Source: a virus (Duplodnaviria > Heunggongvirae > Uroviricota > Caudoviricetes). Taken from it: a stretch of DNA of 42,422 bases. Location of the stretch: IMG/VR virus record IMGVR_UViG_2534682157_000018, one strand, 5' to 3'. Below, one piece after another: positions 1 through 30,655 of this stretch (positions within the stretch are counted from its first letter, which is position 1; every line of letters begins with the position of its first letter). A program made the translations under genes and the position numbers. The notes below the pieces were generated by a model that did not search any database, had not been told where the DNA came from, and saw nothing but the letters and a program-made list of their open reading frames with translations.

Positions 1-2256
<2,256 letters not shown>

Positions 2257-4306: not shown

Positions 4307-4644
4307 CAGATCACCACTTCGTCAAACTGACACGAAAAATTGGTATAGGTGATATGTTCTGTCGCTGACCACGTTCGACACACCACTCTGATTTTTCTGT
4401 TAATACCCGGCGGGCGCCAAAAAAAAGATTTATAGCCTTCATGCCGGGCTAAAAATTTTTCAAATGAATCACGTTCATTCGCCTCAACTTTGAAATCACA
4501 GGTGAAAACGCGCAGAGAATGATTAAGTCCATTTGGACTTCGTTGCTCATAACCATCGCCAAATCTTACAGTTTTTATCGATGGTTTATTTTCTGTTTTC
4601 ATTCCATCCTCTGGTAACCAGTGAAATTCTTCCGTATTAGCCAC
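4306..4644 (-). CDS. M: minor tail protein M
   Basis: 112-aa ORF containing VRFGDGYEQR and C-terminal FDEVVI resembling lambda M; start may be the internal Met at about 4602. Confidence 0.75.
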   Translation of the reverse strand: MANTEEFHWLPEDGMKTENKPSIKTVRFGDGYEQRSPNGLNHSLRVFTCDFKVEANERDSFEKFLARHEGYKSFFWRPPGINRKIRVVCRTWSATEHITYTNFSCQFDEVVI

Positions 4645-7600
4645 TTAACATTCCCCCATCACGTCGCATATTTAACAGATTGCCCTGCACCCGCTGATCA
4701 ACCATCCCCATAAGTGCTTTTATTGCCTGAGGGCCAATCTCTCCATTCTGGCCGTCATTTTGAATAGTGATTTGGTATACAGGGGCATAGGTAATATCTC
4801 CGCCTCCATTACCACTTTTACTATTAATAGCTCTGACACCAAGAGAACCATCGGAAGTTCGTGTTAATGGCATAATGGCTTCCGGTCCAGCCTCACCAAA
4901 AACACCAGCCCCTCTTGCAAAAGCAAAAAATTGCGGGGAATCATAAATACCGTTCGAATACGTGTTCAATGACGGAGACTCATAAACACCGCCCTTTGCA
5001 TTCGGAATAAATTTACTAATAGCACTCCCGATAGTTCCTAAAATCCCCCCAGAAGAACTGTTACTAATGCTGTCGAAAATCCCAGTAATTGAAGCCTTTA
5101 ATGCTATTCGACTAAGATCCGAAATCACGGAAGTAGCGAAAGAACGAAAATTTGCCTTGCCTGTCGTGACAAAATCACCCAGCGCATCGGTCATTCCATC
5201 AAACATCTGAGTCGTGGTTGATTTTATCTGCTCACTGATATCCTTAGTGTCATCCAGCCAGTTATTGAATCCCTGGGAGGCACCACTAACCCAGTCTCCT
5301 GCCTGAATATCGAGCTGCTCGTTTTTCTGTCTGACAATTTCTTTTTCTCGTTCCAGAGCATCATTCAGAGCCTGCATTTTCTCCTGAAAAACATGATTTG
5401 ACATCCCACGGGATTTATCTGCATAGTCACGTTCAAGTTGCAGACGCTGATTGTTATATTCACGTTCAATCCGCAGTAATTCCTGCTGGCGTTGCTGATT
5501 TTTATCGCCAACCCCATAACCAGCAATCTGAATATCATACCCCTGTTGACGATTATCAATCGAAGCCTGCAATGAATCACGCCATGCAGCTATTTCGGCG
5601 GATTCCTTGATTAGCCTGTTATTTTTTTCAATCGCAACATTTTTCTCCATCAACGCGGTTATTTCTTCCCGGTGTAAGAGAAGCGATTTCTGATCCTGGG
5701 TTAATTTCGATGACGGTCGTGACTCCAGGTCGGCAATCTGCTGACGCCACTTAACCAGTTCCTGTTCAGAGGAACTTAATTTAACGGTTAATTCAGTTTG
5801 TGAACTTAGTAACGCATTCTGTTGATTCAGATGATCAATCATTCGTTGGGCAGCATCATCCGAATAACCTTTCGCCTTTGGTTGCTTTGGATCTTTATAA
5901 CGCTCATTTATTTGAGCGATAAAATTATTATATTCTTCCTTTGAATACTGACTCTTTAGCTTTTCCAGTTTTGCAAGTTCACTAGCTCTCTGCTGCTCCC
6001 GGGTCTGATATTGTTTTGAAAAGGCATCTGCTCTCTGTCTGAGTTCAATTCCTTCCTGTTGTCGCTTGTTGTAATCGTTTATTGATGAATTTAGGACGTC
6101 CTGAGCAATTTTTTCTGCTTGAAGTACGCCCAATTGCTGCTTTAATCGTGCCAGCCTTTTATTTTGAGCTCCGCCATCTCCAATGCCACCTAACCCGAAA
6201 ACTCCGGGTCGGGTATTTTTTCTATTTCATCAATTTGACGGAGAACATCTGAGATTTTTTGATCAAGGGAGGCCTCACGGCCAATGTCCAGCATGGAATC
6301 CCATGCCCATTTTGCGGAGTCTGCGACAGCTTTCCATGCAGTCTCAAGATAACCAAGATTTTCTTTAATCTGGTTGGTGCGCTGGATCATTGAGGATGAG
6401 TATGCTTCTGTCGCAATGCGGGCGGCCTCCTGCTGGTTCCCTTCATCCTGTAGCGCCTTAATCTGGTTATAAGTCGCAATTGTCAGAAAATGGTACTGAT
6501 CATTAAGTTTTGATATGGCACTGACAGGATCCTTTGCAATTTCATTGAAGTCATTAACCAGTTGTTCGGTTGATATTCCTGTTACTTCGCTCGTTTTTAC
6601 TATCGCTGTCGTCACTTGCTCCAGCGAACTGCTCGCTACCTTTCCCGAACGCACAAGCTGGTTTAATACTGCCGCCGCAGCGCCAGTTGTCGAATCAGCC
6701 GCATTCCCGGCACGTTGAGCTATATCGGCCAATTGCCCGCTGGTTGTCCCCAACTGATTTCCGGTAAGAATAAGAGATTTATTAAATTCGTCCTGCTCCT
6801 GAGAGCCTTTATAGTAAGCCAGTCCTAAGACCCCAACGGCTGCTGCGGCCAGGGTAAAAGGATTAATTAATCCCAGCACATAAGAACCTACACCTTTGAT
6901 CGCCGGGCCAATCCCACCGAACATATCTTTTAGCTGGCCGCCCTGCTGCATTAACACCATAAATGGCGACTGACCAGTGGACAACCCAACAACAATATCC
7001 GTCATTTGTGCAGGCAACATGCGCATAGCAAAAGCCGTTTGTTTTGCCGACATTCCGGTTTTGCTTAATTGTGATTGAGTAACCTCAAGCTCACTCCGCA
7101 TAGCACGAAGTTTTCCAGAAAGCTCCTCATACATTTCAGGAGAAAGCATCCCCTTAGCTTTTGCTTCATTGAGCTGTTTCTGTTGTTCTACCAGACGATT
7201 AAAAGCAGTTCCGACAGGATCAAGTTGAGCAATCAGACGTTGCAAAGCAACAACCTGTTCATCATGCGCTTTTGCTGCTTCTCGCTCTGCCTGAGCCTCT
7301 CCGGTAAGCTCTCGCCGTGTTTCCTGTATTTTTCGGCTATAATTCTCAAACTGAGAACCATTTATTTTCCCGGATGCAAACGCAGCATTAAGTTCATCAT
7401 GCTGTTGTTCAAGATTTCTTAGCGCCGCAGCCAGAGGGTCGATCTTGTCCAGCATTCTTTGAAAGGCCTGAGCCTGCGCTTCCTGCTGGGCGGCAGCAAG
7501 TTTTCCGGCCTTCTCGGCTTCTCTCTGCGCTTGCGCAACCCCGCTCAATTCCTCTGTGGTTTCATTAAGTTTACGGACAAGAAATTCATATTCTTCTTTA

Positions 7601-7869
7601 TCAATAAGCCCTTTATCGAAAAATTTCTTTAATTCAGAATAGCGTCGACCGACAGTATCAATTGCGGCACCAACTGGATCAATAGCTGCTTTTAATTTTG
7701 CGAGCGCGTTCTTCTCATCTTCTGTTGCCTTAGTCACTTTCCCTGCGCTATTTGCAGCAGTTTCCCCAGCCTGCGTCATTTTGACTAATGAGGAGGTCAG
7801 ATTGTCAGCATTATTTTTCGCTCCAGTGCTATCAATAATTATTGCGAGACGCGAGGTTTGCTCTGCCAT
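4637..7869 (-). pseudogene. H: tail tape measure protein (lambda H-like), read as two frames: N-part 6190..7869 and C-part 4637..6133+
   Basis: N-part has [10 protein letters not shown] (lambda H has MRMLPAQFTD from memory) and coiled-coil sequence; C-part has GEAGPEAIMPL and ends DGGMLSG. C-part frame is open upstream across the N-part stop, so the two overlap at about 6190-6230 next to a T6 run (6216-6221). Confidence 0.8.
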
Positions 7870-16222: not shown

Positions 16223-17533
16223 TTAAATCCGAAGTGATGTGACTCTTCCGGTCGGTTTGACAATAGGGAATTGCTTAACGATGAAATAACCTCCGGCATC
16301 ATTCGGGTGATCATTGCCAGATTTTTTATCAGGCTCCCCCTTCTCATCCCAGACCTGTTGCTCCAGAGATTCGGCATATAACGGGCAACGCTTCACATTA
16401 ACTTTATAGCGACGCTCACCATTGGCATTGCAGAACATTGCATTCATTGAGTTAACGCGATCTTTTACTGGCGGGTTCGAGCTGTTCACCACAACGTTAA
16501 AACCAGCCTGCTTAAGCTGGGCTATATCCGTCGTACTTGCGTTACTTGATTTTCTGGAATCCCCGGAAGCATCTGGATAAATATAAATTTCCCTCACTTT
16601 CCGGTAATCATTCCCATCATACAGCCAGAAGCGTTCTTTAATGATGCGGATCATATCCGGCGTATCGTAGGCATTGATGATTTCAGTTACCGCACATGGA
16701 AGCCCCAAACGCAGCACATGGACGATTCCCGCCATCTTTCCAACGTTAAAATCCATCCCAATATAAATCGGCTCCCCTGGCTGCTCCACTTCTTCGCAAT
16801 TATTCAGTTTCCGGTCAAACTGATGGTAAACAGTACCACTTGTCAGGTTAGTAAACTGTCCTCGAAGATAGGCTTTAATCAGCTCTGGAGGGTATGATTC
16901 AAGAAGCGAAGGAATGTAATCTGCTGGCAGGTTCTTTTCATTATCGAAAGTAGATGCCTGCACCAGACCATACAGTGAGGCCAGCTCTGTTTTTTCACGC
17001 ACGGCTTTAACAAACTGCTCGTAGACAAATTTGAATCCTTCCGGCGTGGTTGTAACGTCAATACCGTTGCGAAGTCCATCAATCTTATAACGCATACGTG
17101 CAATTATCTTGCGCCACGCCGTTCTGGCTTTTTCCTTCGGCAAAATGTCCAGTTCATCCACCAACGCATTACCAATTTTGAAACCGACGATCGTTTGTGG
17201 CTTCTCCATCGATCTGCAGATAGTGGTTCCCCGATACTGGCGTCCGTAATAAAAGTGAACCTCTTTATTTCCCTCATTAATTTTTACGTTCAATCCCCAG
17301 TCAGCAGCAACTTCTTCCACTGTAGGGTAAAAAATATCGCGAATTTGGGGATACGTTGGCGCAAAATATCCCTGATTTATACCTGGATGCTCCCAAATCC
17401 CCTTGCATATGCCGCCACACCCAACCCATGTTTTGCCCGAGCCAAAACCAGCAATATAGGCTTTAAATTTATGGGGCATTGAAAGAAATCGCGCCTGAGG
17501 CACATTAAGCGTCGGAGAGATCATCTTCATCAC
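16223..17533 (-). CDS. terminase large subunit
   Basis: 436-aa ORF with Walker A-like GFGSGKTW near N-terminus; upstream of portal. Confidence 0.75.
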   Translation of the reverse strand: MMKMISPTLNVPQARFLSMPHKFKAYIAGFGSGKTWVGCGGICKGIWEHPGINQGYFAPTYPQIRDIFYPTVEEVAADWGLNVKINEGNKEVHFYYGRQYRGTTICRSMEKPQTIVGFKIGNALVDELDILPKEKARTAWRKIIARMRYKIDGLRNGIDVTTTPEGFKFVYEQFVKAVREKTELASLYGLVQASTFDNEKNLPADYIPSLLESYPPELIKAYLRGQFTNLTSGTVYHQFDRKLNNCEEVEQPGEPIYIGMDFNVGKMAGIVHVLRLGLPCAVTEIINAYDTPDMIRIIKERFWLYDGNDYRKVREIYIYPDASGDSRKSSNASTTDIAQLKQAGFNVVVNSSNPPVKDRVNSMNAMFCNANGERRYKVNVKRCPLYAESLEQQVWDEKGEPDKKSGNDHPNDAGGYFIVKQFPIVKPTGRVTSLRI

Positions 17534-18599
17534 TCCTTACTCTGGCATCAACCACATTAATATTGATCGCCACAGGCTGGGGATGTTCATTATCTTCCAC
17601 CGTTTCGATCTCTTTGCGCAGCTTCTGGTTTTCCATTCTGCGCCGTTCAATTTCCAGTTCCTGTAGCCGTTTATCTGCACATAAAGCCCCGTCAGCAGAA
17701 AACAAACGCAACAATTCACGCCGGGCGGCAGCCTTATCCTCCAGCAGGATCTCAACGCCGAATTTTCCGAATTTTGCCCCTGCATATAATTGCCGCGCAT
17801 CCCCATCAAGCAGAGTGGTATCAGCCATATAAAGCTGTCCCGTTCCCTCACCGCAGCACTTCGGGCAGTCCGGATTGGGTATGGCGTTATCAACAAAGCC
17901 GAGGCCTCCATATTCCGGTTCGGGTTTGCCATCTCTGGAAGCCTGCGCCGCTGCCTTGTCGAATTCTGCTATATCGCGCCACTGGTAGAGATGATTCTCG
18001 CCCCAGCAATAACGGCAGTTAACACGGCGAAATTGTGCAAGCTGATTGGGGTCGGCCAGGACAATAGCCATCAACTGACTCACTAGTAAATCCAGGTCTG
18101 CGGTATAGCGTTTCTGGTACTGATTGCGGAAGTAGCTGATAGCGCGAAAAACCCTGGCATTTCTAAGCATACGACTGGCGTTGCTGTTAGCTGTCGCACC
18201 TTGCCCCTCATAACCGGCTAGTCGGTACGCCTCTGTCTGCTTTTTACCCTGAGCAACAAGCATCGCAAACTTAGCCTGCTGGTCAGAAATGCCGAATTCA
18301 TCGGGACAGAACGAAAATTCCTCCGCGTCGCCCTCATTCAGGCCCGCATCGAATACTGGCTTTTTTTCCTGAGATTTTTCGTTCCGCTTTTGTGCAGTCT
18401 GCGCAGATTTTTTCTGCGCACTTTTTTGCGCAGTTTTGCACATTTCTGTCTGCGCATTTTTCGGAGTTTTTTTGATGTAACGACGGGCTGTTGCGTAATT
18501 CAGTCCCCTTGCTTCACACCATGCCACCGGAGATATACCGGAGCGGGTGTATTCAGCAATATACTCCTGCTGCAACGCCCCCCAGTCCGGTCTGCTCAT
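17505..18599 (-). CDS. putative terminase small subunit / DNA-binding packaging protein
   Basis: 364-aa ORF with N-terminal HTH-like segment and Cys-rich region (CPKCCGEG); immediately upstream of terminase large subunit. Confidence 0.45.
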   Translation of the reverse strand: MSRPDWGALQQEYIAEYTRSGISPVAWCEARGLNYATARRYIKKTPKNAQTEMCKTAQKSAQKKSAQTAQKRNEKSQEKKPVFDAGLNEGDAEEFSFCPDEFGISDQQAKFAMLVAQGKKQTEAYRLAGYEGQGATANSNASRMLRNARVFRAISYFRNQYQKRYTADLDLLVSQLMAIVLADPNQLAQFRRVNCRYCWGENHLYQWRDIAEFDKAAAQASRDGKPEPEYGGLGFVDNAIPNPDCPKCCGEGTGQLYMADTTLLDGDARQLYAGAKFGKFGVEILLEDKAAARRELLRLFSADGALCADKRLQELEIERRRMENQKLRKEIETVEDNEHPQPVAININVVDARVRSDEDDLSDA

Positions 18600-18602
18600 C
18601 AG

Positions 18603-18854
18603 TTAGTCCTGATTTTTATCCACCCTGAGTAGTTCGCGCAGAGCAAAGGCATCCCCTTTTCTGGCAAGCTTAAACAATGCCGCTCGTAACTCGGCTTCAC
18701 CTTTCGCTCTGCCCTTACGGATGGCCGCATAAAAATCTGTCATTGCTTCCCGATTTTCTTTCAGTCGGTTCAGATCAACATCCAGAACGTCAGCGATTTG
18801 TTGTGCAGTCATCCGGCACGCTGCCAGAGACTCGACTTTCGAATACGGAATCAT
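18603..18854 (-). CDS. hypothetical small protein (possible HTH)
   Basis: 83-aa ORF ending 4 nt before the putative terS start. Confidence 0.35.
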   Translation of the reverse strand: MIPYSKVESLAACRMTAQQIADVLDVDLNRLKENREAMTDFYAAIRKGRAKGEAELRAALFKLARKGDAFALRELLRVDKNQD

Positions 18855-19743
18855 TTGTCACCCCCATTGATATGCAGGGTGTCTTCTTCCTGTATTTTTC
18901 GTGAAGGATTTTTACTGCAGCGTTGTTCCAGGTGACCTGATGGTGAATGCGTTTATGGCTGGCACCCATCAGTGAGATTTTTACGCACGACGGCGCATAC
19001 ATGACGGAGTAAAAACTTTTAACGTAGGTTCCGGAATCCAGATACAGCTCGGTCATTCCGCCGCTGTTTTTCTGCGTCTGTTTCTGCCCTAACTGGACAG
19101 CACCGATCGTCATAAACAATTCACCACAGCGACCGAGATTCGTGTACGTATTCACATCCTCGTTAATGCGCCCCATGAATGAGAACGGTCGATCAACCGA
19201 ACAGATAAAGCTGTTCATTGCCTTGCGTTTCACCCACGAAGCATGGCCGCCATTGTCACCAAGAAAATCCCCGCCCTGCGACATAGCGATGGAAAGAGCA
19301 GGTATTGATTCGTAGTACGCCAGCATTTCAGAAAGGATCGCATCCAGTTTCCTTATCGGAAAATAGGCCTGGTCATAGTTGCGATCCACCCGAAACTGGA
19401 ACTCGTGATAATCATCATCGAGCTGAATGAAGTATTTACACCCGACCAGTTTTGCCAGGTCGAAACAGGCATTACGGGCGTAAAAAATTGAGCGGCGGTC
19501 ACAGAAATTATCGGCTTCGTCAAAACGACTGGCGATATCGGCTTTGGAAAACACCAGCACCTGTTCACCAAATTCAGCCATGTACTGATTCCGTGTCTTA
19601 TCTTCATCATCAACAACGATAAAAATTTTCCCGGTATAGCCAGCACGACGCAACGTCCGGTAAGTCAGAACTTTGTCCGGTCGCCCGTGAGTCAGAATAA
19701 AGGCGCAAAAATCATCACGCATATTCCTCCTCCTCACCACCAT
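18790..19743 (-). CDS. GT-A fold (family-2-like) glycosyltransferase-like protein
   Basis: N-terminal AFILTHGRPDKV...KIFIVVDDED resembles the GT2 pattern and FIQLDDDY resembles a DxD motif; overlaps the stop of the ParB-like gene. Confidence 0.45.
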   Translation of the reverse strand: MVVRRRNMRDDFCAFILTHGRPDKVLTYRTLRRAGYTGKIFIVVDDEDKTRNQYMAEFGEQVLVFSKADIASRFDEADNFCDRRSIFYARNACFDLAKLVGCKYFIQLDDDYHEFQFRVDRNYDQAYFPIRKLDAILSEMLAYYESIPALSIAMSQGGDFLGDNGGHASWVKRKAMNSFICSVDRPFSFMGRINEDVNTYTNLGRCGELFMTIGAVQLGQKQTQKNSGGMTELYLDSGTYVKSFYSVMYAPSCVKISLMGASHKRIHHQVTWNNAAVKILHEKYRKKTPCISMGVTNDSVFESRVSGSVPDDCTTNR

Positions 19744-20506
19744 GCATGATCTCCACCATGCGCTGCGTCATCCGGACAAATCCATTTTCAATAGCCTGCT
19801 GATAATCAATGATCACCAGCGCCGACTCCTCGAAAAAACACTGAATTTCAGAGGGGGCGTGAGCGTAATAGTCCGCAATTCTGCTGAAATTAAACACCGT
19901 GTGACGTTCTGCCGCACACAGGAGGAATTTCTCAATATCAGGCTCAAGGGACGCCGAACGTATCCGGCTGATCAGCTCCTGAGTTTTCGTATCGTCGTAC
20001 AGTTCACTGATATCCGGTTTACCGCCCGACGGCTCATAAACAGGCGTATCAATTTTCGTCGTATACGGCTCCTCCTCATTTCCTGTACCGGGCAAAACAT
20101 CCGTCAACAGTTCATCAATTTCTGTCGGGATGAAGCCTGTCAGGGAGACATCAAAATCAGCATTGATTAGGTCCGACAGCTCCATCCGCAACAGATCTTC
20201 ATCCCAGCCAGCATTCATCGGCAGGCGATTATCTGCCAGGCGGTACGCCTTTTTCTGCTCATCCGTCAGGCCAGACAGAACAATGACCGGAACAGAATCC
20301 ATTTTGAGCATTTCAGCCGCCATAACACGACCGTGACCCGCAATAATTTCGCCCTTTTCGTCAATCAGCACCGGATTAGTCCAGCCGAATTGCTTAATAC
20401 TTTCTACCAGTTGTGCCACCTGCTCAGGGCTGTGCGTCCTGGCGTTGTGCGCATACGGTGACAATTCTTGTAATGGGCGATAGACTATCTTTAATTTCTC
20501 GCTCAT
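19715..20506 (-). CDS. ParB-like nuclease domain protein
   Basis: 263-aa ORF with ParB N-terminal-like motifs (...NARTHSPEQVAQLVESIKQFGWTNPVLID...GHGRVMAA). Confidence 0.65.
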   Translation of the reverse strand: MSEKLKIVYRPLQELSPYAHNARTHSPEQVAQLVESIKQFGWTNPVLIDEKGEIIAGHGRVMAAEMLKMDSVPVIVLSGLTDEQKKAYRLADNRLPMNAGWDEDLLRMELSDLINADFDVSLTGFIPTEIDELLTDVLPGTGNEEEPYTTKIDTPVYEPSGGKPDISELYDDTKTQELISRIRSASLEPDIEKFLLCAAERHTVFNFSRIADYYAHAPSEIQCFFEESALVIIDYQQAIENGFVRMTQRMVEIMHGGEEEEYA

Positions 20507-20530: not shown

Positions 20531-20558
20531 GCACCCCAGCAGCCAGTGCTACTGGGGA
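20531..20558 (-). terminator. hairpin downstream of trkG-like gene (possible terminator)
   Basis: CCCCAG-N12-CTGGGG inverted repeat; flanking U-tract weak. Confidence 0.25.
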
Positions 20559-20643: not shown

Positions 20644-22117
20644 TTAGGAGCGCCAAAAAAAACCTGAAAACAATATAATAACAGGATAAATTTCAAGGCG
20701 ACCAAGAATCATAGCTATGCACATTAAACATTTTGCAATGTCATTAAGCACTCCGAATGACGATGCAGTAGCCCCAAAACCTAATCCCATATTATTAATA
20801 CATGCAGCCACTGTTGCAAATGATGTAAGAAAATCATATCCCATACCATTTAACACCAGTATAAAAAACACCGTGAAGAGAGTATAAAGAAAAAGAAACT
20901 CCATACAGACCTCATTACACGATCTGTAACTATCTTCCCTCCTACATTTACACTCAACAACGCTCTGGGATGAGAAAGCTGATTTATCTCGTGTTTGCTT
21001 TGTTTGAAAAGTATAAGAAATCGAAGTGACTTAATTCCACCACAAGTTGAACCTATACATCCCCCAAAGAAACTTGACAACAGCAAAAACACTATCGTGT
21101 GCGTGGGCCAACTTGCATAATCCTGCGTAGCTAAACCATTATCAGTGAGCATGGAGCTGGCAAGAAAAACGAATGAATAAAACTTCCATGCAAGTCATAC
21201 ATACCTATATGCCAGACCTGGAAAGAGGTAACAATGATCACCCCTAAGGCTATTAACAGAAAGAAACGAAGTTCAATATCTCTGATTAAAGGTTTTATCG
21301 TTTTCCTGCTAATAACAATATACCAAAGAGTGAAGTTGAAAGCCGATAGCAGGGAAAAAGAACCAGCCACCAGCTCAACCAAATAGTTATTAAAATATCC
21401 GATACTCTCGCTATGAGTTGAGAAACCACCAAGCGAAACTGTGGAAATCCCGTGACAAATAGCATCAAACAAAGGCATTCCTGCAAGTCTATAACAGACA
21501 ATACAAGCAATACCTAATAAAGAATAAGTTATCCACAGTGTCCGTGACGTATCGGCCAGGCGGGGAGTGAGTTTGTCATCCTTAAATGGCCCCGGCATTT
21601 CTGACTGATAAAGCTTTGCACCACCAATACCCAATAATGGCAATACAGCAACCGCCAGAACAATAACTCCTAAACCACCTATAAAATTTAACTGTGACCG
21701 ATAGTACAAATATTCCCGAGGTAATGAACTAACATCATCAATTACAGTTGCTCCTGTTGTTGTTATTCCAGAAACCCCTTCAAACAGAGCATCAATGAAC
21801 GTTAAATTAAGTTCTGAGTCAATCCATAAAGGGAATGCACTAATAACAGAAAACAAAATCCAAAACATTACAATTATAATAAACCCATCACGGGTACGTA
21901 ATTGAATGCCAGATTTCTTAGTTGTATACCACGCTCCGCCACCAATGCAAAAAAATATAACGAAAGTTATAAAGAAAACGAACAGGCTTTTTTCTTTATA
22001 AAACAATGCTACAACCATTGGTGGCAACATTGAAAGACTATAGAGCCAAACCAGGAACCCACACATATGAGTAACAACTCTTACATGAGATGTATTCATA
22101 TCTAAATATTCTTTCAA
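20644..22117 (-). pseudogene. trkG: TrkH/TrkG-family potassium uptake protein, read in three frames
   Basis: N-part 21131..22117 is TrkG-like; fragments 20850..21152 (GGCIGSTCGGIKSLRF...) and 20644..20904 (...GRLEIYPVIILFSGFFWRS) continue it in shifted frames; an A5 run (21165-21169) lies at the first junction and a T3-C-T5-C-T3 tract at the second (20887-20897, near 20900). Confidence 0.7.
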
Positions 22118-25679: not shown

Positions 25680-26222
25680 TCAAGCCATTTTCTCAGCAAA
25701 TGATTCACGCATGGGAATATATAGGGCATACTCAGCAACAGCTAACCAATTAGCAATCCGTTTTTCGCATGTGCTAAAACACCACTCTGGGTGTGCATCA
25801 TTTAGCAATTCAGCCATTTTGCGCTTAGTCATCCCCCGCCCTTCATAGCGTTGCCGGAGAATGCAAATCAATCCTGGATGCTCTGCCAGCACCTCACTTA
25901 TGACTCGATCAATACATAACGCCTCTGCATCAGTACAATGCGCCAGCCAGCTCTTTTGCTTGCCGTTGATCATCTCTCGCAAAAACGCTTCCAGCTCAGC
26001 TTTCTCTATTCCCGCTTTTTTCATTCTGCGCAGGGCTTCATTAATGGCTGTTTTCGTCAGTTTTTTGGATGCCAACAACTGATTGAACATATTCCCTGAC
26101 CTGCCACCGCCAATATACGACCAGCGCCCCCACATACGTAGTTTTCCCTGAATCCAGACACTTTCCAGCGTGGTGAGGCGAAGGTGTTCTCCGCTTTTTC
26201 CTGTATTCGTTGGATAAATCAT
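25680..26222 (-). CDS. Q: late-gene antiterminator Q-like protein
   Basis: 180-aa ORF directly upstream of terminators and lysis cassette, downstream of nin-type genes; assignment mainly by synteny, family not verified. Confidence 0.55.
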   Translation of the reverse strand: MIYPTNTGKSGEHLRLTTLESVWIQGKLRMWGRWSYIGGGRSGNMFNQLLASKKLTKTAINEALRRMKKAGIEKAELEAFLREMINGKQKSWLAHCTDAEALCIDRVISEVLAEHPGLICILRQRYEGRGMTKRKMAELLNDAHPEWCFSTCEKRIANWLAVAEYALYIPMRESFAEKMA

Positions 26223-28398: not shown

Positions 28399-30655
28399 TT
28401 ATTGAATTTGCAGGTTTGTACGTAAGGAACCTGTAGATTCCTCATATAACTTAGATATATAATTAGACATATCATGGTTACTTCGTACTTTTTTATTGAA
28501 TTTTTTCAGGTACTTATCAACCGTAGTGCTAAGTAGCCCTGAGTCGTCTGTAACGTGAGTTATCCCTAAATTAATCAAAACACCTAATTTATTTTTTTCC
28601 ACTAAGCTATCAAATGCGGATTTATCCCCGAGCTCATTCAGTGTTGATGCTATGAAGAAACGTGCATAATCAATATGTTCACCAATTTCCTCATATTGTT
28701 CAATTTGAACTGACAAGTCTTCCAAGGCAGATTTGAAAAAATCATATGCGTAATTGTTACTTAAACACTTTGTGAAAATACAAAGAAGAGCTACTGGTGA
28801 AAACTCCTTCAGCGGGATGTCGGTATTTCCCTTGAGAATATCAACATATAATTTACCTGCATCTATATATGATAAAAAGACTCCCCTCGTTATTTTTTTA
28901 TACGGAGTTAGATATGAAGCCAAATAAAAAGAACCGTTATAAAATAACCTTAAAAATCTTGTTTTATCGTTACTAGGTTTAAGTTCATTAATTTTATCAA
29001 TAAGATATTCATTGTCTCTTAACAAACCAAAATAGAAGAAATAACTATTTGCCCAATAAATATCATAAATATTATCATTTATGTCTATTAGGCCACGCTT
29101 CCTAAGTCCTTCAGCGTAAAAATACTCCATGAATGATCTGTGTAGAAATGAGAACGTATTACTTCTAACATTAACTGTTGTTACTTCACTGCGATAAATT
29201 AGTCTTTTGAAAAGTTTGTCCTCATCAACATTCAAGTTTCTTTTGGCCAAATAATTTAAAAACATGTCCTGCACTTCTGAAATTGATATGCAGTTTAGAG
29301 AGTTATCCATCATAAATATCGCAATTTCTACTAATATATTACTTATTACATCATATTCTGTTTGCGATAATAATCCCTTAGATGTATCCCATCGTCCCAA
29401 TACTATCTCACTGTATTTTGAGTATAGTTCTGTCATTGTAGATGGTAATTCTTTAATCTCATCAGAGAGTATTCTTGCCAGAAGAATAGCGCTCACTGGA
29501 GTCCTGGGAATGAACTTAAATAGTGGTGTTTTTCTATACCATTTTTAAGTTTATTTGTTATTTTAATGTCATTGCAGATTTTATCTACAAAGTCGATTAT
29601 TTGACCTGTGCTAAGTGGTATTATCGAGTATCTTGCAAACATCTGATCGATAACTTCATAGTCCTGAAGAGAATCCATAATTCTTGAAGCAACTAGTAAT
29701 CGAATTTTATCATTCCTGGATACTTTCTCTACAATGTCCCTGAAATTGTTTTGCCTTTCCTCAAGTGATTCCTTTACTTCATCCACCGAATCAACAATTA
29801 ATAAAATATTCCCATCATGTTGTATTTTGTACTTACTTAACACACTTTGTATTATATTTTCAACATTAAGTTTTTTTCTAGAACATCCTTGTATTGACAA
29901 AATACTGGAAGGATGTAGTCTTTTTCGTAAGAATATTCTTCTTTTATTTTTCTAATTAACTGTTTCAGCAAAGTACTTTTCCCAGAGCCAACGGTTCCCT
30001 CTAAAAAAATAAATCTCTCGGCTCTCACAACACTATACAGTTTTAACGGCCTGTGTCTGCGTTTTTTATGATCTTCCTTGCTTACATATCTATCAATAAG
30101 GTTATTTATGCCAACACTACCAAAAAAAGAGCTTTCAGGTGTATCACTTATAGTTTGCAATGTATCTGTTAAGTATTGTTCATAATTAATGGATTCGAAA
30201 TCCCAAAACTCTGGGTAATATTTACTGATTAAAGAACATATTTTTTCACCCTCTATAAATTTTATATTTGTAGATTTGAATTTCAAGTAAATTTTTTCTT
30301 GAGCATTATTTGAGATCGATGAATTAGTAATAACCCAAATTTCATTCAAATGTATGTTCTTAGAGCCAGAAGAAATAAAGCGTGGATATAATTGACACTC
30401 TTCTATTTGTCGTTCAACCTCACTATTTGACTGAATTATCTTTCCAACTTTACAAATAACACCAATATATATTTCCTCGTCTAATGCCTCATCTCGTTTA
30501 ATTATGACAAAATCAGCACCTTTTTCTGATGGTCCTTGCTTATATTCAACATGTGTAACAGTCGGCAAACGTGGTAGAAGCGCTCTTAGCACTGGATGGA
30601 AATCATCAACCTCACGTTGCAATGATTCTATTTTTCTTAAGTATTCTGGTTTCAT
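28399..30655 (-). pseudogene. NACHT-type STAND NTPase with N-terminal Mrr-like (PD-(D/E)xK) domain, read in three frames (29852..30655, 29493..29900, 28399..29496)
   Basis: Walker A GTVGSGKST at the end of the first ORF; Walker B LLIVDSVDE and LLVASR motif in the second; N-terminal GADFVII...EIYIGVICK resembles an Mrr catalytic core; junctions at T7 (29871-29877) and T5 (29529-29533); visibly AT-rich. Confidence 0.65.

Follow-up and report, generated by a model that had tools for sequence, protein, structure and literature searches.

What does a glycosyltransferase (GT) modify when its gene lies behind that of a ParB-like protein, next to the packaging genes of a prophage? This question is raised by a pair of minus-strand genes in a 42,422-nucleotide (nt) stretch of viral DNA (IMG/VR record IMGVR_UViG_2534682157_000018), which as a whole is called the window below. 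From its sequence and the PGAP annotation of near-identical genomes, the window is a Rac-like lambdoid prophage of Escherichia coli. An earlier note, made from the sequence alone, had suggested that the pair might serve in packaging or in the modification of DNA or virions and had left the function open; each element of that proposal was backed here by hidden Markov model (HMM), structural, and synteny evidence. Here, the second gene was found to encode a TAGT-family enzyme with a GT-A fold and the catalytic motifs of that family, obligately paired with a partner protein and placed in the late operon of a prophage in which no hydroxymethyl-pyrimidine pathway was detectable. The pair is tentatively read as a late-expressed, partner-dependent DNA glycosylation module, a reading whose probability we place slightly below even.

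The GT gene occupies positions 18790..19722 of the minus strand when read from its probable start at 19722 (310 amino acids [aa]). Its product scored 121 bits (cut-off 27.5; E value 8.4e-35) against the Pfam model TAGT (PF20691, "TET-associated glycosyltransferase"), with an alignment spanning profile positions 4-205 of 205, and its homologues bear precomputed PF20691 assignments. It also matched phrog_842 (E 1e-103). An AlphaFold2 (AF2) model was obtained with a predicted local distance difference test score (pLDDT) of 76 and a predicted template modeling (TM) score of 0.77. The neighbors of this model in the PDB, as found with Foldseek, were GT-A enzymes only (ThuS/SunS, K4CP, SpsA, AvpGT, and glycogenin; E 7e-5 to 1e-3, TM score 0.3-0.46), and its structural neighbors in the viral database BFVD were TAGT-domain proteins (TM score 0.66-0.83). 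Residues R21, D109-D111, and E195-D196, numbered on the 317-aa longest open reading frame (ORF), were invariant in 50 GT sequences. They correspond to the R...DDD...ED(Y/F) signature, which is common to phage GT-A DNA glycosyltransferases and the kinetoplastid base-J enzyme JGT (bioRxiv 2023.12.21.572611), with the third motif reading EDV here versus EDY/F in the published signature. The DDD(Y) motif pointed out in the earlier note comprises residues 109-112, with DDD at nt 19411-19419, and proved to be invariant. The profile and model evidence supports assignment of the enzyme to the TAGT family and the GT-A fold, and use of a nucleotide sugar through the R...DDD...ED active site is proposed from the motifs. 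The first description of the enzyme as GT2-like held with respect to the GT-A fold (PF20691, phrog_842, and the AF2/PDB neighbors) and had to be revised with respect to the family, which is TAGT and not generic GT2. The last ~25 residues of the protein form a nonconserved tail, and the bacterial GTs of the cassette mostly have a neutral to basic isoelectric point (pI).

The label of PHROG 842, "beta-glucosyl-HMC-alpha-glucosyltransferase," was considered as a literal function and rejected, since the prophage contains neither a dCMP hydroxymethylase nor an alpha-GT and thus has no hydroxymethylcytosine pathway; transfer of the label to this GT is unwarranted. The identity of the GT to TAGT homologues of T4-like phages is 22-24% (E about 1e-4).

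The gene in front of the GT gene (19715..20506, minus strand) encodes a ParB/Srx-fold partner protein of 263 aa, a full-length form of Rac YnaK. In PGAP, its gene is ynaK and its product a "ParB/Srx family N-terminal domain-containing protein," and the GT is listed as a "hypothetical protein." The ParB N-terminal-type motifs reported previously were borne out by matches to Pfam PF02195 (ParB_N; 28.9 bits, just over the cut-off of 26.3; E 1.2e-6) and phrog_620 (E 8.5e-91), so that the HMM check suggested for a ParB domain and a GT-A fold was positive in both Pfam and PHROG, with PDB neighbors that were all GT-A. The N-terminal, NTP (nucleoside triphosphate)-binding-type domain and a helical hairpin take up residues 1-135 (20102..20506, minus strand). 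AF2 was confident over residues 8-135, with a pLDDT of ~90 for the domain, and the PDB profile matches were to the N-domains of Noc, ParB, and Spo0J (E about 1e-5). Box II reads GHGR (residues 57-60) and Box III reads DN (residues 92-93); in 132 unique partners, G57 was conserved at 97%, R60 at 89%, and N93 at 100%. These motifs are compatible with NTP binding or hydrolysis. The protein has a pI of 4.5, and its counterparts across lineages are always acidic (pI 4.1-4.7).

The ~140 N-terminal residues are 30-54% identical to the N-termini of phage DNA methyltransferases among 496 phage records, and they also match phrog_498 and the PADLOC model MTase_II (E 2e-38). On account of these matches, the N-domain is regarded as a module that recurs on DNA-modifying enzymes. 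Closely related ParB-N proteins (up to 61% identical) occur without a GT in Yersinia phage vB_YpM_44 and Vibrio phage R19R, where their genes come just ahead of the terminase, and these GT-less proteins also lack the C-terminal module described below. A canonical partition ParB of a ParABS system was considered and rejected because TIGR00180 reached 38.5 bits, under its cut-off of 58.45 and over the N-domain only, because no helix-turn-helix (HTH) Pfam match was obtained for the protein, and because no parA is annotated by PGAP in two near-identical prophages. The "partitioning protein" labels in phage records are thus not supported. Assignment to an anti-phage defense system was likewise rejected, since PADLOC gave just MTase_II on the ParB N-domain and no match for the GT.

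The C-terminal half of the partner was conserved at least as well as the ParB N-domain in the alignment. It starts with a linker (residues 136-166) that is predicted to be disordered (AF2 pLDDT ~34) and that carries an invariant motif, Y148-T-x-K-x-x-x-P155-x-Y157-E-P-S-G (20024..20065, minus strand). The linker is followed by a C-terminal helical domain, which we call parbC (residues 167-263; 19718..20008, minus strand). Among 150 unique proteins from many phyla, Y148, P155, Y157, R201, Y214, E226, D234, and G242 were 100% conserved, and H202, Q222, and S228 were at least 98% conserved. The domain was defined with our own HMM; no Pfam model covers it, neither a Pfam match nor a PDB profile match was obtained for it, and AF2 confidence over the C-terminal region was low to moderate (pLDDT 32-80). 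A search with the parbC HMM through 1.84 billion representative proteins retrieved 1189 clusters (50% identity). In the best 150 of these clusters, parbC was always C-terminal and no parbC-TAGT fusion protein was present. The parbC proteins are mostly 250-300 aa long, with a subset of 128-200 aa.

A survey of co-occurrence, which the earlier note had called for, was performed in both directions with HMMs that were built for the N-domain, parbC, and the GT and run on the fetched loci. The forward set was made up of 80 IMG/VR loci, taken at a GT identity of 55% or more. A parbC protein was encoded upstream of the GT in 80/80 of these viral loci and adjacent to it in 79/80. The reverse set was collected with a parbC peptide pattern, taking one genome per species (99 matches, 80 kept). 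A TAGT gene was found in 77/80 of these loci, immediately downstream in 72; the three exceptions stop at a contig edge, which makes 77/77 for the genome loci whose downstream sequence was available. In 64 loci, parbC and the ParB N-domain shared an ORF. The reverse set included Pseudomonadota, Bacteroidota, Bacillota, Verrucomicrobiota, Patescibacteria, Chlorobiota, Desulfobacterota, Acidobacteriota, Actinomycetota, and Bdellovibrionota, among others, and the pairing as a whole spans more than 10 bacterial phyla and a haloarchaeal virus.

The same picture was obtained when the GT was compared with deposited phages by tblastn. The pair was present, in like order and with overlapping genes, in several unrelated phages, namely, Lactobacillus gasseri phage phi jlb1, Lactobacillus delbrueckii phage c5, Nocardia phage NTR1, a Porphyromonas gingivalis phage (whose GT is just 27% identical), and the haloarchaeal virus HHTV-2. 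In full-length alignments between E. coli and those viruses, the GT was 38-48% identical and the partner 32-42% identical, and the GT was about 43% identical between the E. coli and Haloarcula viruses. In most phages, the terminase genes follow the pair directly. It forms the first two genes after cos in c5 (31.8 kb) and lies ~3 kb from the terminase in HHTV-2. In E. coli, the 2.2-kb region around the pair had a match in 1619 of 5426 complete genomes, and in 867 of those 1619 the match covered at least 80% of the region. Ten deposited phage records carry it at 99.7-100% identity.

The two halves of the partner did not behave alike. At divergent loci, the identity of the N-domain drops to 24-29%, whereas parbC holds 42-57% and the GT 56-58%. 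Since the N-domain diverges while parbC and the GT stay similar, the N-domain is an exchangeable module. In Vibrio phage pv27 (191 kb), a stand-alone parbC protein of 139 aa without a ParB N-domain precedes the GT (L088:6459-6878). The TAGT of this phage has a 40-aa N-terminal extension, and the pair is placed away from the terminase, in the replication module, with primase/exonuclease genes on one side and a helicase gene on the other. Thus, the parbC module (linker motif plus helical domain) is the obligate partner of this TAGT clade, and the ParB N-domain is exchangeable and sometimes absent. The coupling of a ParB-like protein to a GT, as first noted, was therefore correct for the pair of genes and has to be relocated within the protein, since the coupled part is the C-terminal module and not the ParB N-domain. 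In the literature surveyed, which did not include the 2013 paper that defined the TAGT family, no description was found of an obligate pairing with an unannotated C-terminal module and tyrosine motif, of a dispensable ParB N-domain, or of a consistent lack of a precursor-forming enzyme. Neighborhood surveys mention ParB-like genes near phage GTs in passing (bioRxiv 2023.12.21.572611).

The junction of the two genes was examined for evidence of joint expression. Both are real genes and not chance ORFs, because each product has thousands of conserved homologues. The longest ORF of the GT gene extends over 18790..19743 (minus strand; 317 aa) and overlaps the partner gene at 19715..19743, which is the 29-nt overlap of two minus-strand ORFs given in the earlier note. 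Both ORFs and this maximal overlap were found as described. A second ATG of the GT gene is located at 19722, and GAGGAGGAGGAAT is read from the sequence directly before it; PGAP picks this ATG as the GT start in identical genomes (310 aa), and the consensus N-terminus of the GT homologues is MRDDFC. For these reasons, the true overlap is most likely 8 nt (ATGCGTGA, with a strong Shine-Dalgarno sequence) and not 29. In this junction (19715..19735, minus strand), as seen from the sequence itself, a Shine-Dalgarno site, GAGGAGGAGG, is situated at 19726-19735 inside the 3' end of the ParB-like gene, and the ATG of the TAGT gene (19722) overlaps the stop codon TGA of the ParB-like gene (19715-19717). 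A similar overlapping junction was found in phi jlb1, HHTV-2, c5, NTR1, and the Porphyromonas phage. Whichever start holds, the overlap implies translational coupling of the two genes, in agreement with the co-expression suggested earlier.

The pair lies where it had been placed previously, between a K+ transporter gene and the terminase genes, as judged from the ORF list, Pfam, PHROG, and PGAP: fragments of trkG are upstream, and the terminase small subunit gene (17505-18599, minus strand) and large subunit gene (16223-17533, minus strand) are downstream. The terminase genes were recognized by Pfam Terminase_2 and phrog_51 and by PGAP, and as a block (16223..18599) they are the conserved downstream context of the cassette, in equal order in other phages. 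Sequence inspection revealed a terminator-like hairpin (20534..20557, minus strand; a 10-bp stem, then TGCGTTTTAT) between trkG and the start of the ParB-like gene. No promoter-like site was found after this hairpin on the minus strand, and a Pfam scan identified a Q-like DUF1133/antitermQ gene (25680-26222, minus strand) upstream of the pair. From these three features, we infer that the pair is probably expressed solely within the Q-antiterminated late transcript, alongside the packaging genes.

Additional genes were found in the cassette in some lineages. A radical S-adenosylmethionine (SAM) enzyme with a CNNRCPYC motif (PF04055) is encoded directly after the TAGT in 11 of 80 species loci, which come from Clostridia and a Bacteroidaceae metagenome-assembled genome (L110 [e.g., L110:5185-6171], L120, L129, L137, L143, L147, L151, L156, L162, L167, and L171). 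The 3' end of the TAGT gene adjoins or contains the start of its gene, giving a three-gene variant of the cassette. Two tandem TAGT paralogues follow the partner gene in three loci (L119, L137, and L151), and in another locus a class-I SAM methyltransferase gene (L124:4302-5180) is inserted between the partner and GT genes. The tandem TAGT genes and the inserted methyltransferase suggest longer or further-modified glycans in those lineages. A C5-cytosine DNA methyltransferase is encoded ~3 kb upstream of the cassette in 4 of the 80 loci (L149:2-1006 and three related Kiritimatiellae-type loci), which is too rare for a general partner. In the 50 kb of the 191-kb pv27 genome that were covered, a thymidylate synthase gene next to a dihydrofolate reductase gene resembles ordinary ThyA and gives no clue to the acceptor. 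In several L. delbrueckii phages (Ld17, LL-Ku, phiLdb, and Ld25A), the TAGT gene is in two pieces or truncated, and the ORF annotated as "ParB nuclease" in Ld25A aligns with the last 45 residues of the GT. These phage records show natural decay or fusion of the cassette.

Both folds, as well as the idea of a DNA-modifying enzyme assisted by a ParB-like protein, are already known. PF20691 includes the beta-glucosyl-HMC-alpha-glucosyltransferase of phages T2 and T6, which adds a second glucose onto alpha-glucosyl-5-hydroxymethylcytosine (5hmC) DNA (PMC13216743), and related phage GT-A enzymes glycosylate 5hmC that is produced by a methyltransferase and a TET-like 5mYOX dioxygenase (bioRxiv 2023.12.21.572611). 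The GT of the window shares the Pfam family, the GT-A fold, and the R...DDD...ED signature with the T2/T6 enzymes, with JGT as a remote relative, and like them it is phage encoded. The T2/T6-type enzymes act on 5-hydroxymethyl-pyrimidines or on a sugar attached to one, with precursors supplied by a dCMP hydroxymethylase and an alpha-GT or by a methyltransferase and TET/5mYOX, whereas no precursor-making partner was detected for the GT here. In addition, the T2/T6-type enzymes are not described as needing a ParB-like partner, and the GT here is only ~23% identical to T4-like TAGTs. The genomic association with TET/JBP (5mYOX) or another source of 5-hydroxymethyl-pyrimidine that marks the TAGT family was not found for this enzyme. 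As reported previously, 288 of 753 GT-encoding phage genomes carry a solitary TAGT homologue without an alpha- or beta-GT, the function of which was left undefined (PMC13216743, NAR 2026). The present cassette fits this class, with a TAGT homologue and no alpha-GT or beta-GT nearby; the survey makes no mention of ParB, and the obligate pairing with parbC is added by this analysis.

For the partner, the closest parallel is ParB176, a ParB-like protein that its cognate phage thymine dioxygenase, 5mYOX176, needs for activity on double-stranded DNA (PMC13229309, PNAS 2026). ParB176 has no DNA-binding domain, and an unstructured linker joins its nucleotide-binding domain (NBD) to its C-terminal domain (CTD); both the NBD and the CTD are needed for activation, and mutations of NTP-site residues had little effect (PMC13229309). 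Compared by description, the partner here has the same NBD-linker-CTD layout without an HTH, and its gene is likewise next to that of an enzyme from a DNA-modification family. The cognate enzyme is a dioxygenase for ParB176 and a GT here, and the linker is nonconserved in ParB176 and contains invariant residues here. There are also natural variants of the present partner without the N-domain, and the 5mYOX176 study describes a GT-associated 5mYOX clade without ParB. Since that clade lacks ParB and the ParB176 linker is not conserved, the present cassette is a different combination from the 5mYOX/ParB pair. By analogy, the shared layout supports the view that the partner may work like ParB176, and the difference in cognate enzyme speaks against its membership in the same class. 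Fusions of ParB-N with DNA methyltransferases (phrog_498; MTase_II; PF02195+PF01555) resemble the N-terminal 140 residues and are usually located at the same site upstream of the terminase. The effector is part of the polypeptide in these proteins, whereas in the cassette it is a GT encoded separately and recruited by a dedicated C-terminal module. In a 2025 survey of the ParB-CTPase fold, phage methyltransferase fusions are listed and no link to glycosyltransferases is given; the methyltransferase-fused relatives bound ATP. Finally, GREB1 is an O-GlcNAc transferase for estrogen receptor alpha with a TAGT-superfamily GT domain (PMC7968844). It demonstrates that protein acceptors are possible in the superfamily, and its likeness to the GT here is through the superfamily only, as GREB1 is a eukaryotic, multidomain protein of 1949 aa without a ParB partner.

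Taking these comparisons together, DNA is favored as the target because of the known substrates of the family, the methyltransferase-type N-domain of the partner, the late position near the packaging genes, and the wide host range with high conservation. The wide, obligate, and ordered pairing, together with a GT identity of ~43% from E. coli viruses to those of Haloarcula, points to a substrate that all hosts share, such as DNA, and not to a host-specific envelope polymer. The position of the cassette, at the head of the late/packaging operon behind a hairpin, is shared with ParB-methyltransferase genes, and the additions of a second TAGT, a radical SAM enzyme, or a SAM methyltransferase are typical of multistep hypermodification clusters. 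We infer that DNA is the substrate, that the partner is an activator, and that the benefit is protection from host defenses. Under this proposal, the pair would form a translationally coupled, late-expressed cassette for covalent modification, in which the TAGT enzyme is the catalytic subunit and requires the parbC module of the partner. The ParB N-domain, where present, would tie this complex to DNA and possibly also to an NTP switch. Once the DNA has been replicated, at about the time of packaging, the partner would activate the GT and/or load it on double-stranded phage DNA; the GT would then add a sugar to the DNA of the progeny genomes, which would alter their susceptibility to host nucleases and other defenses.

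Several observations weigh against DNA glycosylation by this module, most of all those on the acceptor. No TET/JBP enzyme, thymidylate-synthase-like hydroxymethylase, or DNA methyltransferase is present in the PGAP annotations of two near-identical prophages, and Pfam scans of the unknown ORFs of the window gave lambdoid DUFs only and no acceptor-forming enzyme. Such genes were equally absent from the annotation of phage c5 and from a Pfam scan of its unannotated ORFs, and the ORFs flanking the pair in HHTV-2 had no relevant Pfam match. When the flanking ORFs of the 80 species loci were clustered, no acceptor-forming gene recurred near the cassette; terminase and portal genes were the only recurrent neighbors in general. 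A hidden TET/JBP enzyme or hydroxymethylase was therefore rejected for want of a candidate in the Pfam scans (window, c5, and HHTV-2) or the neighbor clustering, although very divergent enzymes could escape these scans. Barring such an unrecognized enzyme, the acceptor cannot be phage-made 5hmC or 5-hydroxymethyluracil. Canonical DNA bases carry no hydroxyl group, and we know of no precedent for direct glycosylation of an unmodified base. The partner itself gives further grounds for doubt: it is strongly acidic (pI 4.1-4.7) and without an HTH, so that DNA binding is not evident; the ParB N-domain is its only DNA-linked part, yet is dispensable in some lineages; and its invariant part is a disordered, tyrosine-containing motif. 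In addition, GREB1 of the same superfamily glycosylates a protein (PMC7968844), and the GT-associated 5mYOX clade manages without ParB (PMC13229309). It is possible, and in our view somewhat doubtful, that a glycosyl group is installed without a hydroxymethyl-pyrimidine precursor at all, either on DNA at a new kind of acceptor or on the invariant tyrosines of the partner.

The second of these acceptors leads to an alternative in which the TAGT glycosylates its own partner, for instance at Tyr148 or Tyr157 or at neighboring Ser/Thr residues of the disordered linker, while the ParB N-domain gives the resulting glycoprotein a separate function, such as NTP binding or association with DNA or the terminase. 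Glycogenin, GREB1, and the S-glycosyltransferases of glycocins, whose acceptor is a cognate peptide, are parallels. Two tyrosines and one proline are 100% conserved in a segment that is predicted to be disordered, as would be expected of a modification or docking site. The linker motif and CTD never part from the GT, unlike the ParB N-domain, and a partner that serves as the substrate would explain why it is this part, and not the N-domain, that is inseparable from the enzyme. One-to-one coupling of genes is typical of enzyme-substrate pairs; ThuS and SunS, which S-glycosylate peptides, and glycogenin, which glucosylates itself, are among the best PDB folds; GREB1 O-GlcNAcylates a protein; no enzyme that forms a DNA acceptor was found; and the radical SAM neighbors (11/80 loci) are also known from peptide-modification clusters. 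However, the Foldseek matches are weak (E about 1e-4, TM score 0.3-0.46) and generic for GT-A enzymes, and all characterized phage members of the family act on DNA. Moreover, many invariant polar residues of the CTD (R201, H202, Y214, Q222, E226, and D234) suit a functional subunit better than a passive substrate, and there is no obvious biological role for a glycosylated acidic ParB-like protein. Glycosylation of the partner, the main rival of the DNA reading, is considered unlikely.

Two further explanations were weighed. The position of the cassette, immediately upstream of the terminase small and large subunit genes in most phages, would also suit a packaging accessory, in which the ParB-like protein aids the terminase by marking or organizing concatemers at pac/cos or as a nuclease cofactor, with the GT secondary or structural and modification of nucleic acids not its chief purpose. 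The GT-less ParB-N relatives (up to 61% identical) that hold the equivalent position in vB_YpM_44 and R19R agree with such a function, but they lack the parbC module, and all catalytic motifs of the GT are strongly conserved. Furthermore, the pv27 pair is in the replication module far from the terminase, that of HHTV-2 is ~3 kb away from it, and the split or truncated GT in several L. delbrueckii phage records indicates that the GT is probably not essential for packaging. We consider a packaging accessory improbable. The earlier note had mentioned a common core packaging accessory without modification activity as a finding that would speak against its proposal; because terminases can be preceded by ParB-N relatives that have no GT, and because the GT is split or truncated in several L. 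delbrueckii phages, the evidence supports a pair that is widespread yet accessory and not a core packaging factor. The other explanation is envelope glycosylation of the seroconversion type, as by prophage Gtr or TarP, in which a change in O-antigen or teichoic acid blocks superinfection. TarP-type prophage GT-A enzymes have this function, phage GT-A DNA glycosyltransferases are structurally similar to TarP (bioRxiv 2023.12.21.572611), and the gene is in the region where lambdoid phages carry morons, with trkG adjoining. Nevertheless, neither a membrane segment nor a flippase partner is obvious from the ORF translations, the partner has a ParB fold, and pairs with ~40% identity occur in viruses whose hosts have unrelated envelopes, namely, Gram-negative and Gram-positive bacteria, actinobacteria, Bacteroidota, and haloarchaea. 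The pair is also present in phage c5, whose annotation lists no integrase, and expression in the lysogen is unlikely because the pair is behind a terminator-like site without a promoter of its own. An envelope function is thus very improbable, and partner-dependent glycosylation of DNA is retained as the favored reading.

The minus strand of the window carries, in order, tail, head, and terminase genes, the ParB-like/TAGT pair, trkG, lysis genes, a Q-like antiterminator gene, and replication genes, and its plus strand carries kilR, racC, recE, recT, and intR. Between the GT gene and the terminase small subunit gene lies a small ORF (18603..18854, minus strand; 83 aa, or 69 aa as a hypothetical protein in PGAP) that matches the middle of phrog_309, "terminase small subunit" (E 8e-23); the nonconserved, E. 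coli-specific 25-aa tail of the GT overlaps it. Relative to two near-identical reference genomes, single-base deletions were found at 6216, 8902, 13488, 20890, 21165, 25067, 28124, 29529, 29871, 32987, 33723, and 35982, each of them in an A or T homopolymer run. Because of them, trkG (20644-22117) consists of three ORFs, and their positions agree with the breaks in the tape-measure (4637-7869) and NACHT (28399-30655) ORFs. These deletions look like long-read homopolymer sequencing errors and not true pseudogenes; they are unrelated to the cassette, and the ParB-like and TAGT genes are untouched by them. The NACHT-domain protein gene (28399-30655, minus strand), which forms three ORFs in the window, is 2259 nt long and intact in strain CFSAN061771. 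It is located in an island of 31-35% GC content (28-31 kb) between nin-like and replication genes and beside hokD, and is probably a prophage-borne defense gene; the corresponding site in E. coli SE11 holds genes for a DUF262 protein and a TPR protein and an IS3 element. A 533-aa ORF at 52-1653 (plus strand), in a region of 58-61% GC content, had no Pfam match. It is most likely not a gene, because the tail-tip gene J, which is cut by the window edge, appears to run antisense to it on the minus strand.

To our knowledge, glycosylation of phage DNA is known only as decoration of 5-hydroxymethyl- or 5-hydroxy-pyrimidines. To the question of what solitary TAGTs glycosylate, the present analysis adds an obligate partner module, a spread over bacterial phyla and an archaeal virus, and an inducible E. 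coli prophage. If DNA is the target, at a new kind of acceptor, the cassette would define a new class of DNA modification by phages; roughly one-sixth to one-third of the sequenced E. coli genomes would carry it, and it would extend to viruses of more than 10 phyla and of archaea. This would widen the chemistry of DNA hypermodification, with a bearing on restriction evasion, sequencing artifacts, and phage therapy. Should the partner protein be glycosylated instead, at its invariant tyrosines, the cassette would be a new phage system of protein-tyrosine glycosylation and would give the ParB fold a new role. In either form, the glycosyltransferase would depend obligately on a new domain, parbC, as a cofactor or as a substrate. 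Since the cassette resides in a natural, inducible E. coli prophage, the question of what solitary TAGTs glycosylate becomes accessible to E. coli genetics and mass spectrometry.

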